NCBI RefSeq assembly: GCF_988242995.1
Contig: NZ_OZ547043.1
Length of the DNA: 64,000 nt
Direction: 5' to 3' (one strand)
In this document: one piece after another, positions 12,691-45,722 of the stretch
Position numbering within the stretch: position 1 is the first letter of the stretch
Layout of the letters: every line of letters begins with the position of its first letter
Notes under the pieces: generated by a model
The model's input: only the letters and a program-made list of their open reading frames with translations
Told to the model about the DNA's origin: nothing
Databases searched by the model: none
Program-made: the position numbers and the translations under genes

Positions 12691-13944
12691 TTACGCGTAA
12701 ACCGGATAACGTGCGCAGATGTCGAGAACTTTACCTTTGATGCGCTCAATAACCGCTTCATCATTGATGCTGTCCAGCACGTCACACATCCAGCCAGCCA
12801 GTTCTTTCGCTTCTGCTTCTTTGAAACCACGACGGGTAATCGCCGGAGTACCCACGCGAATACCGGAGGTCACAAACGGGCTCTTTGGATCGTTTGGTAC
12901 GCTGTTTTTGTTGACGGTGATGTTAGCACGGCCCAGAGCGGCGTCAGCTTCTTTACCAGTCAGGTTTTTATCAACCAGATCAACCAGGAACAGGTGGTTA
13001 TCAGTACCACCAGAAACCACTTTGTAGCCGCGTTCCAGGAACACTTCTACCATCGCTTTGGCGTTTTTCGCGACCTGCTGCTGGTAAGTTTTGAACTCAG
13101 GCTCCATCGCTTCTTTCAGAGCAACCGCTTTACCGGCGATTACGTGCATCAACGGACCGCCCTGACCACCAGGGAAAACGGCAGAGTTCAGTTTTTTGTA
13201 CAGCTCTTCGCTACCACCTTTCGCCAGGATCAGGCCACCGCGCGGACCCGCCAGGGTTTTGTGAGTGGTGGTAGTCACTACGTGAGCATGAGGAACTGGG
13301 TTCGGGTAAACGCCAGCAGCAACCAGGCCCGCAACGTGCGCCATATCAACGAACAGGTAAGCACCGATGCTGTCAGCGATTTCACGCATTTTCGCCCAGT
13401 CCACCACGCCGGAATATGCAGAGAAGCCACCGATAATCATTTTCGGTTTGTGTTCTTTGGCTTGTTTTTCCAGATCGGCGTAGTCGATATGACCGGTAGC
13501 ATCGATACCGTAAGGAACGATGTTATACAGTTTACCGGAGAAGTTAACCGGAGAACCGTGAGTCAGGTGACCGCCATGCGCCAGGTTCATACCCAGAACG
13601 GTATCGCCTGGTTCCAGCAGCGCGGTGTACACCGCAAAGTTAGCCTGGGAGCCGGAGTGCGGCTGGACGTTAGCGTAGTCAGCGCCGAACAGTTCTTTCG
13701 CACGATCGATCGCCAGTTGTTCAACGATATCAACATACTCGCAACCGCCGTAGTAGCGTTTGCCCGGATAACCTTCAGCATATTTGTTGGTCAGCTGAGA
13801 ACCCTGCGCCTGCATTACGCGCGGGCTGGTGTAGTTTTCGGAGGCGATCAGTTCGATGTGCTCTTCCTGACGTACTTTTTCCTGCTCCATAGCCTGCCAC
13901 AGTTCGGCATCATAATCGGCAATGTTCATTTCACGCTTTAACAT
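12691..13944 (-). CDS. glyA: serine hydroxymethyltransferase
   Basis: ORF matches GlyA ([23 protein letters not shown]...); start set at second ATG for 417 aa. Confidence 0.93.
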
Positions 13945-14197
13945 CCGCATCTCCTGACTCAGCTAACAATAAAATTTTTGGCCTTTATAGGCGGTCCTGT
14001 TGGACAACGGCGAACAGTATAACCGAATCATTGTGCGATAACAGGTCTTGACAAAGGAATTTACGCAAACGATTACCTTCAGGCTGCGCAAGGCTTTGGA
14101 GAATAAAGAGCTTGCAACCGGAAACGGATTTCTTTTCAGGTTTGTGATGCAAATTTTTCACTTCATCACATTCTTTCTGAAAAACACCAAAGAACCA

Positions 14198-14245
14198 TTT
14201 ACATTGCAGGGCTATTTTTTATAAGATGCATTTGAGATACATCAA
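14198..14245 (+). promoter_or_regulatory. hmp promoter (-35 TTTACA, -10 TATAAG) with overlapping FNR-like box TTGAG-N4-ATCAA inside a longer NsrR-like palindrome
   Basis: Hexamers at 14198-14203 and 14220-14225 (16-bp spacer); TTGAGATACATCAA at 14232-14245 just upstream of the hmp SD. Confidence 0.6.
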
Positions 14246-14272
14246 TTAAGATGCAAAAAAAAGGAAGACCAT

Positions 14273-15463
14273 ATGCTTGACGCTCAAACCATCGCTACAG
14301 TAAAAGCCACCATCCCTTTACTGGTGGAAACAGGGCCAAAGTTAACCGCCCATTTCTACGACCGTATGTTTACTCATAACCCAGAACTCAAAGAAATTTT
14401 TAACATGAGTAACCAGCGCAATGGCGATCAACGTGAAGCCCTGTTTAACGCCATTGCCGCCTACGCCAGTAATATTGAAAACCTGCCTGCGCTGCTGCCA
14501 GCGGTAGAAAAAATCGCGCAGAAGCACACCAGTTTCCAGATCAAACCGGAACAGTACAACATCGTCGGCGAACACCTGTTGGCGACGCTGGACGAAATGT
14601 TCAGCCCGGGCCAGGAAGTGCTGGACGCGTGGGGTAAAGCCTATGGCGTACTGGCTAATGTATTTATCAATCGCGAGGCGGAAATCTATAACGAAAACGC
14701 CAGCAAAGCCGGTGGCTGGGAAGGTACTCGCGATTTCCGCATTGTGGCTAAAACACCGCGCAGCGCGCTTATCACCAGCTTCGAACTGGAGCCGGTCGAC
14801 GGTGGCGCAGTGGCAGAATACCGTCCGGGGCAATATCTCGGCGTCTGGCTGAAGCCGGAAGGTTTCCCGCATCAGGAAATTCGTCAGTACTCTTTGACTC
14901 GCAAACCGGATGGCAAAGGCTATCGTATTGCGGTGAAACGCGAAGAGGGTGGGCAGGTATCCAACTGGCTGCACAATCACGCCAATGTTGGCGATGTCGT
15001 GAAACTGGTCGCTCCAGCAGGTGATTTCTTTATGGCTGTCGCAGATGACACACCAGTGACGTTAATCTCTGCCGGTGTCGGTCAAACGCCAATGCTGGCA
15101 ATGCTCGACACGCTGGCAAAAGCTGGCCACACAGCACAAGTGAACTGGTTCCATGCGGCAGAAAATGGCGATGTTCACGCCTTTGCTGATGAAGTTAAGG
15201 AACTGGGGCTGTCACTGCCGCGCTTTACCGCGCACACCTGGTATCGTCAGCCGAGCGAAGCCGATCGCGCTAAAGGTCAGTTTGATAGCGAAGGTCTGAT
15301 GGATTTGAGCAAACTGGAAGGTGCGTTCAGCGATCCGACAATGCAGTTCTATCTCTGCGGCCCGGTTGGCTTCATGCAGTTTGCCGCGAAACAGTTAGTG
15401 GATCTGGGCGTGAAGCAGGAAAACATTCATTACGAATGCTTTGGCCCGCATAAGGTGCTGTGA
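14273..15463 (+). CDS. hmp: flavohemoglobin / nitric oxide dioxygenase
   Basis: 396-aa ORF with N-terminal globin domain and C-terminal FAD/NAD reductase domain. Confidence 0.93.
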
Positions 15464-44344: not shown

Positions 44345-44728
44345 TTACAGGCTTTCAGTAAAGGTACGAGCGATAACGTCGCGCTGCTGTTCCGGAGTCA
44401 GAGAGTTAAAGCGAACTGCATAACCGGATACACGGATGGTCAGCTGCGGATATTTTTCCGGATGCTTAACTGCATCTTCCAGAGTTTCACGACGCAGAAC
44501 GTTTACGTTCAGGTGTTGACCACCTTCAACGCGAACTTCTGGTTTCACTTCTACTGGAACTTCACGGTACTCAATGTCACCCAGTTTGCTTACTGCAACC
44601 ACTTCGTCTTCTGCAAAACCTGCTTTCGCAACGATGCAACGCGCTTCGCCTTTTTCGCTGTCCAGCAGCCAGAAAGAGTTCAGCAGATCGTCGTTAGCGG
44701 CTTTAGTAATCTGGATACCTGTAATCAT
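44345..44728 (-). CDS. grcA: autonomous glycyl radical cofactor protein
   Basis: C-terminal glycyl-radical motif RVSGYAVRF; start at [10 protein letters not shown] (127 aa). Confidence 0.92.
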
Positions 44729-44835
44729 GTGATGCCTCCCCGGCAAAATTATTTGATTTGTTCAGCCTGTCGCGGCCAATTGGTAAAACCATTGTTGCTT
44801 GAGTGTATATATACTCCTCAAACACCCTTGAATCT

Positions 44836-44902
44836 TTGATTTAAATCAATAAAAACCATACATCAAGTATGGTCGCAAATGGATTTTATTGTTTTACATC
44901 AA
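44836..44902 (-). promoter_or_regulatory. two FNR-type boxes upstream of grcA
   Basis: TTGATTTAAATCAA at 44836-44849 (perfect TTGAT-N4-ATCAA) and TTGTTTTACATCAA at 44889-44902, centres 53 bp apart. Confidence 0.7.
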
Positions 44903-45032: not shown

Positions 45033-45722
45033 ATGGCAAACGAATTAACCTGGCATGACGTGCTGGCTGAAGAGAAGCAACAACCCTATTTTCTTAATAC
45101 CCTACAGACCGTCGCCAGCGAGCGGCAGTCCGGCGTCACTATCTATCCGCCACAAAAGGATGTCTTTAACGCGTTCCGCTTTACAGAGTTGGGTGACGTT
45201 AAAGTGGTGATTCTCGGCCAGGATCCTTATCACGGACCGGGACAGGCGCATGGTCTGGCATTTTCCGTTCGCCCCGGCATTGCGACACCGCCGTCACTGC
45301 TGAATATGTATAAAGAGCTGGAAAATACTATTCCCGGTTTCACCCGCCCTAATCATGGTTATCTTGAAAGCTGGGCGCGTCAGGGCGTTCTGCTACTCAA
45401 TACTGTGTTGACGGTTCGCGCAGGTCAGGCGCATTCCCACGCCAGTCTCGGCTGGGAGACCTTCACCGATAAAGTCATCAGCCTGATTAACCAGCACCGC
45501 GAAGGCGTGGTGTTTTTGTTGTGGGGCTCACATGCGCAAAAGAAAGGGGCGATTATTGATAAGCAACGCCATCACGTACTGAAAGCGCCGCATCCATCAC
45601 CGCTTTCTGCGCATCGTGGGTTCTTTGGCTGCAACCATTTTGTGCTGGCAAATCAGTGGCTGGAACAACGTGGCGAGAAACCGATTGACTGGATGCCAGT
45701 ATTACCGGCAGAGAGTGAGTAA
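45033..45722 (+). CDS. ung: uracil-DNA glycosylase
   Basis: 229-aa ORF with motifs GQDPYH and HPSPLS. Confidence 0.95.

Follow-up and report, generated by a model that had tools for sequence, protein, structure and literature searches.

The flavohemoprotein Hmp is the principal aerobic NO-detoxifying enzyme in enteric bacteria, and the primary papers on the NsrR site of its gene, hmp, are said to be those of Bodenmiller and Spiro from 2006 and of Partridge from 2009. Because tight repression of hmp bears on virulence and on redox balance, its promoter is a biologically important one. Repression of hmp both by NsrR and by FNR has been described (PMC2884951; PMC3212961; PMC1274295). With respect to NsrR, hmp has been reported to be under the regulation of this protein (PMC2884951), the NsrR site of the Salmonella hmp gene has been studied by EMSA (PMC10783083), and an NsrR site predicted upstream of hmp was found to be highly conserved in enterobacteria (Rodionov, 2005; PMC1274295). 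Mehta (2015; PMC5320621) lists for hmp a ChIP-seq-positive NsrR site with an 11-1-11 architecture, TTGATGTATCTCAAATGCATCTT, that has a PatSer ln(P) of -18.22 at a cut-off of -14.28. The corresponding NsrR ChIP-seq peak at glyA/hmp in CFT073 is of modest enrichment (3.79-fold), and two 11-bp motifs were located under it, AAGATGCATTT at 44 nt and AAGATGCAAAA at 19 nt from the start codon; E. coli NsrR is also reported to use single 11-bp half-sites (Mehta, 2015; PMC5320621). With respect to FNR, an oxygen sensor, a site at hmp was found to be conserved solely in close relatives, E. coli and Salmonella (Rodionov, 2005; PMC1274295), and expression of a Salmonella hmpA-lacZ fusion rises 216-fold in a delta-fnr strain (PMC3212961). 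Myers (2013; PMC3688515) reported that hmp possesses an FNR site passing the PWM threshold and that its expression is fnr-dependent; FNR ChIP-seq gave no peak at hmp, which was consequently classed among the "silent" sites, and a passage of the same paper cites Cruz-Ramos (2002) for the binding of FNR to hmp in vitro.

The DNA analyzed here carries this well-studied NsrR/FNR control region of the hmp promoter, and the feature has accordingly been described already. As control by NsrR and FNR has been in the published record since 2002-2009, the finding itself is not new, and our additions to it are modest: a leave-one-out check of the operator with a position weight matrix (PWM), a footprint across 79 species, and three observations. 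The FNR box and a second NsrR half-site are confined to particular lineages and overlie an NsrR operator that is conserved universally; the operator of E. coli is the poorest NsrR match of the family; and the nested position of the FNR box suggests that the two regulators compete.

The window, by which we mean the whole stretch of 64,000 nt that was analyzed, is a piece of the E. coli chromosome. Its glyA/hmp intergenic region (13951-14272; 322 bp) is shared, with 95-100% identity, by 5425 of the 5426 complete E. coli genomes, in one copy per genome and on the chromosome every time. In an annotated genome, this region is flanked by glyA on the minus strand and by hmpA on the plus strand, with glnB and glrR further downstream. 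The preliminary description had named the downstream gene as hmp, and rightly so: the plus-strand reading frame at 14273..15463, whose ATG is at 14273, matches the NCBIfam equivalog NF009805 for the NO-inducible flavohemoprotein over its full length with 626.6 bits (cut-off 432; E 1.6e-188) and is annotated as hmpA in E. coli genomes. The divergently oriented neighbor, glyA, encodes serine hydroxymethyltransferase (12691..13944, minus strand; full-length match to NCBIfam NF000586, 678.5 bits); the open reading frame that ends at 13950 gives this serine hydroxymethyltransferase match, and NZ_CP032515.1 annotates glyA at locus positions 1741-2994, which are equivalent to 12691-13944 of the window. 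The promoter segment proper (14198-14275) is identical to the window in 1414 of 5418 E. coli genomes, and 4003 genomes fall within 95-99% identity, a band that corresponds to one to three differences for a query of 78 nt. The eight genomes listed from this band carry a single change each, a substitution in one of them and a match shorter by one base in the other seven.

Elsewhere in the glyA/hmp intergenic region, a sigma-70-like arrangement, TTGTCA-16-AATGAT (14054-14027, minus strand), points toward glyA and may represent the glyA promoter. Upstream of the hmp -35 region lies a MetR-like box, TGCAAATTTTTCA (14148-14160), with one mismatch to TGAA-N5-TTCA, and beside it a 7-nt inverted repeat, TTTTTCA/TGAAAAA (14154-14160 and 14178-14184). 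A scan of the window with the MetR consensus, allowing at most one mismatch, yielded 18 matches against 27 expected and is uninformative alone; the box at 14148-14160 is its one match in the intergenic region. Binding of MetR in the glyA-hmp intergenic region is cited in a passage of PMC2884951.

For a comparison across species, we retrieved the hmp locus of 80 species-representative genomes and set side by side the 130 nt that precede the ATG. The resulting set of 79 Enterobacteriaceae sequences consists of the window and of 78 loci with enough upstream sequence. The segment studied here is very probably the core promoter and operator of E. coli hmp, in which a sigma-70 promoter is overlaid by an NsrR operator with an FNR site nested into it. 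Our assignment relies on identity to published sites, on PWM rank and on conservation; binding and regulation are taken from the literature.

The -35 hexamer of this promoter, TTTACA (14198..14203, plus strand), was assigned from a promoter scan and from its spacing across species. As the -10 hexamer, the preliminary description had proposed TATAAG; this string is present at 14220-14225, and the operator does overlap the -10 region, but we infer from the promoter scan and the spacer that TAAGAT (14222..14227, plus strand) is the more likely -10 hexamer. TTTACA-18-TAAGAT attains 9 of 12 matches in a consensus scan, including the A at position 2 and the T at position 6, and TTTACA is found 17 or 18 nt upstream of a TAAGAT-type hexamer in 75 of the 79 species. 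TAAGAT is also to be preferred because TATAAG would have a spacer of 16 nt in E. coli, and of 15 nt in the 39 species with one T fewer, and does not possess the final T. Transcription would then be expected to start at about 14233-14236. The FNR site of hmp was reportedly placed by Cruz-Ramos in 2002 at about -2 to +11, a position that is consistent with TAAGAT as the -10 hexamer. With either -10 hexamer, the operator overlaps the -10 region and extends across the expected transcription start, and the repressor-type position claimed for the element is therefore borne out. The ribosome-binding site, AAGGAAG, read from the sequence at 14261..14267 (plus strand), is situated 5 nt before the ATG; this motif is conserved in most of the species compared. 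Between the second half-site unit discussed below and the ribosome-binding site lies an A tract (14255..14262, plus strand) whose length is polymorphic in the alignment. The window has A8, one K-12-like O16:H48 genome has A7 and another species of Escherichia has A5, so that the spacing between operator and ribosome-binding site changes; apart from the A7 of K-12-like genomes, there is no substantive difference between this promoter and the published hmp promoter.

The spacer between the -35 and -10 hexamers contains a conserved block at 14207-14214, CAGGG(G/T)TA, which reads CAGGGCTA in E. coli and follows TTTACA in 63 of the 79 species, an unusual property for a spacer. The block resembles the complement of the NarL/NarP heptamer (AKRRGTA), and NarP control of hmp has been mentioned (Rodionov, 2005; PMC1274295). 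A NarL/NarP 7-2-7 site in this spacer is not supported, as the best candidates contain 3-5 mismatches in every species.

The NsrR operator, AAGATGCATTTGAGATACATCAA, is a 23-bp imperfect inverted repeat of 11-1-11 architecture at 14223..14245, and this assignment is supported by the published site, by the PWM and by conservation. When read as its reverse complement, the segment equals the NsrR site published for hmp, TTGATGTATCTCAAATGCATCTT. It is built from a left arm, AAGATGCATTT (14223-14233), a central G (14234) and a right arm, AGATACATCAA (14235-14245), and thus conforms to the organization of enterobacterial NsrR operators, in which half-sites of the consensus AAGATGCATTT are inverted around a 1-bp spacer. 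To avoid circularity, the symmetric PWM used for scoring was built from the 25 other distinct sites in the table of Mehta, with hmp excluded. The scan with an NsrR matrix that the preliminary description had suggested returned 14223-14245 as the top match in the 64-kb window with 17.9 bits, the runner-up reaching 12.6 bits; a score of 17.9 bits was attained anywhere in 10 of 200 Markov-simulated 64-kb windows. The left arm agrees with the NsrR half-site consensus at all 11 positions, and no half-site in the window scores better, the arm ranking first among ~128,000 positions. In the right arm, 7 of 11 positions agree with the left arm read as its reverse complement; scored as an NsrR half-site in its own right, this arm is weak (about 2-2.4 bits with the PWM). 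The longer palindrome that had been noted around the FNR-like box is hence present as the 11-1-11 operator, but it is imperfect, and the box is nested within it and does not merely overlap with it. Taken singly, simple features such as the FNR-like box or the short direct repeat discussed below do not exceed what chance would give; it is the match to a known motif, the position and the conservation that make this operator a non-random feature.

A natural variant of the left arm occurs in E. coli MS20673, where a C-to-T change at the position equal to 14229 of the window yields AAGATGTATTT. The same left-arm form is present in Salmonella and in several Citrobacter species, and the change is therefore probably neutral for the binding of NsrR.

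In all 79 species, a 23-bp palindrome of the NsrR type precedes the hmp ATG by 40-61 nt, so that the operator is conserved upstream of orthologous hmp genes throughout the set. Across these species, the operator scores do not fall below 17.2 bits, their median being 26.0 bits, and conservation amounts to 1.81 bits per column in the left arm and to 1.47 bits per column in the right arm. In both operator score and strength of the right arm, E. coli ranks last among the 79 species, for which the median of the right arm is 11.6 bits. This weakness is explained by the fact that the right arm of E. coli matches the FNR consensus instead: it ends with ATCAA where most of its relatives possess ATCAT or ATCTT, and the base at the center of the operator is the G that completes TTGA.

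The FNR-like box, TTGAGATACATCAA (TTGAG-ATAC-ATCAA), is found where it had previously been described, at 14232..14245, and agrees with TTGAT-N4-ATCAA at 9 of 10 positions. It retains the G of TTGA and the C of TCAA, in keeping with the FNR consensus. The box is contained in its entirety in the NsrR operator, of which it comprises the last two bases of the left arm, the center and the right arm; NsrR and FNR should therefore compete for this DNA and not bind to it together. At the homologous position, a box with at most one mismatch exists in only 11 of the 79 species (Escherichia and some Citrobacter), one Escherichia species possesses a perfect TTGAT-N4-ATCAA, and 54 of the 79 species have boxes with at least three mismatches, all of them keeping the NsrR operator. 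To judge from this distribution, the FNR site looks like a lineage-specific overlay on an ancestral NsrR operator. For the dual repression of hmp by the NO sensor NsrR and by FNR that had been invoked for this promoter, there is consequently literature for both regulators, but the absence of an FNR ChIP-seq peak (Myers, 2013; PMC3688515) and the poor conservation of the box leave direct FNR occupancy in vivo as the weaker half of the story.

The arrangement of these elements lends itself to a simple regulatory model. The 23-bp operator begins at the second base of the -10 hexamer and crosses the expected transcription start. When NO is absent, an [Fe-S]-NsrR dimer would occupy the operator and thereby exclude RNA polymerase from the promoter. 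Nitrosylation of the cluster by NO would cause NsrR to leave the DNA, and derepression of hmp would ensue. Under anaerobic conditions, holo-FNR could repress from 14232-14245, and FNR would likewise be inactivated by NO. A second unit at 14248-14258 would serve as a weak NsrR half-site peculiar to Escherichia, and it may contribute additional occupancy past the transcription start.

This second unit, AAGATGCAAAA (14248..14258, plus strand), is listed as hmp(19) among the motifs under the ChIP-seq peak. The preliminary description had recognized that the FNR-like box is embedded in a longer sequence, AAGATGCATTTGAGATACATCAATTAAGATGCA, that reads as two partially repeated AAGATGCA units. We recovered this 33-mer at 14223-14255, where it is unique in the window, and its two AAGATGCA units coincide exactly with the published half-sites AAGATGCATTT and AAGATGCAAAA. 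Part of this resemblance is an exact 9-nt direct repeat, TAAGATGCA, whose copies (14222-14230 and 14247-14255) are 25 bp apart. We rejected this repeat as a statistical anomaly: the window contains 19 instances of exact 9-mers that recur at a distance of 10-30 nt, compared with about 6.5 in simulations, and since such repeats are common, the repeat alone is no evidence for a function. A supporting role of the second AAGATGCA unit in the occupancy of the promoter by NsrR is plausible but unproven, plausible because E. coli NsrR reportedly makes use of single half-sites. The competing view, namely that chance or a recent local duplication gave rise to the second AAGATGCA unit (14247-14258), which would have no regulatory role, and that only the 23-bp operator matters, is one to which we assign somewhat less than an even chance. 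The abundance of short repeats speaks in its favor, as does the intermediate half-site score of the second unit (7.8 bits with the PWM, rank 82 in the window). The columns of the second unit are furthermore the least conserved of the promoter, with 0.57 bits per column, and its exact sequence is restricted to Escherichia among the 79 species. Standing against a neutral repeat are the presence of the unit among the motifs under the NsrR ChIP-seq peak, the reported function of single 11-bp half-sites in E. coli, and the half-site-like sequences (AAGATTCACAT and similar ones) that Citrobacter species carry at the same offset of +25.

The comparison across species permits an evolutionary reading of the hmp promoter that goes further, and this reading is the only mildly new element of our analysis. 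In Escherichia, and in part in Citrobacter, the right arm of an ancestral, pan-enterobacterial NsrR operator might have been remodeled into an FNR site at the cost of affinity for NsrR; the half-site located 25 bp downstream would partly compensate for this loss, and NsrR would mask the FNR site in vivo. We regard this scenario as a whole as possible, yet rather doubtful. Masking of the nested FNR box by NsrR would explain why hmp is "silent" in ChIP-seq experiments despite its fnr-dependent expression, and it would in this way reconcile the ChIP-seq data with the genetic data.

In our view unlikely is the possibility that NsrR alone acts directly at the hmp promoter. The FNR-like box would then be a by-product of the NsrR palindrome's resemblance to the FNR consensus, and the effects of fnr would be indirect, for instance via endogenous NO or the Fe-S status of the cell, or marginal in vivo. 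A consensus NsrR operator does, by construction, share most of the FNR consensus positions, and about 2.4 boxes that match the FNR consensus with one mismatch or none are expected by chance in 64 kb (six are present in the window). The placement of hmp among the predicted sites that gave no FNR ChIP-seq peak, the loss of the box in the 54 species that nevertheless keep the NsrR operator, and the confinement of the FNR site to close relatives (Rodionov, 2005; PMC1274295) all point in the same direction. However, the substitutions specific to Escherichia, the central G and the terminal AA, shift the right arm from the NsrR consensus toward that of FNR, and one Escherichia species has gone all the way to a perfect box. 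The large effect of fnr on the Salmonella hmpA-lacZ fusion (PMC3212961) and the in vitro binding of FNR to hmp, for which a passage in Myers (2013; PMC3688515) refers to Cruz-Ramos (2002), also argue against an exclusive role of NsrR. A function of the repeats at the level of RNA, as a hairpin in the 5'-UTR that governs translation or stability of the hmp mRNA, is extremely improbable, for although the region past about 14234 is transcribed and adjoins the ribosome-binding site, the expected transcription start falls downstream of the conserved left arm, and we rejected a structured 5'-UTR after folding 14234-14300 (-4.0 kcal/mol, z = +0.67; 144 of 200 shuffled sequences fold at least as well).

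Returning to an NsrR operator with an FNR site nested into it as the preferred reading, the closest known system is the E. coli hmp NsrR site itself (Rodionov, 2005; Mehta, 2015), whose sequence is identical to 14223-14245 and whose half-sites are the two units present in the window. The E. coli ytfE and hcp operators share with hmp the 11-1-11 architecture and the half-site consensus. Both arms of the ytfE site are identical to the left arm of hmp, AAGATGCATTT; the ytfE site is a near-perfect palindrome, whereas the right arm of hmp is degenerate (7 of 11 positions; ~2 bits) and serves at the same time as an FNR box. When viewed from the side of FNR, hmp resembles those FNR-repressed promoters in which the site is located at or after the transcription start: its box, matching at 9 of 10 positions, is placed just downstream of the -10 hexamer, where a repressing position would be expected. 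In distinction to these promoters, the box of hmp is nested in the operator of another regulator, is phylogenetically narrow in its distribution and is devoid of a ChIP-seq peak.

The window itself contains another promoter with FNR boxes. A perfect FNR box, TTGATTTAAATCAA (44836-44849), and a box with one mismatch, TTGTTTTACATCAA (44889-44902), are separated by 53 bp from center to center and are located upstream of a minus-strand open reading frame (44345-44746) whose translation looks like GrcA/YfiD; on their other flank lies ung (open reading frame 45033-45722, plus strand). We presume that the boxes within 44836-44902 are the known yfiD/grcA promoter, in which one FNR site is centered at -40.5 and another at -93.5. 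The FNR boxes of the grcA promoter are upstream of the gene and of the activating type, in contrast to the box of hmp.

Outside the Enterobacteriaceae, hmpA of Vibrio vulnificus (PMC8175989) provides a further point of comparison. There, an NsrR site with the same 11-1-11 architecture is situated over the transcription start, with a footprint from -2 to +18, and represses the orthologue of hmp. The two loci differ in their divergent neighbors, which is nsrR in V. vulnificus and glyA in the window, and in the partners of NsrR: Lrp and CRP are the co-regulators of hmpA in V. vulnificus, whereas at the hmp gene of E. coli this part falls to FNR.
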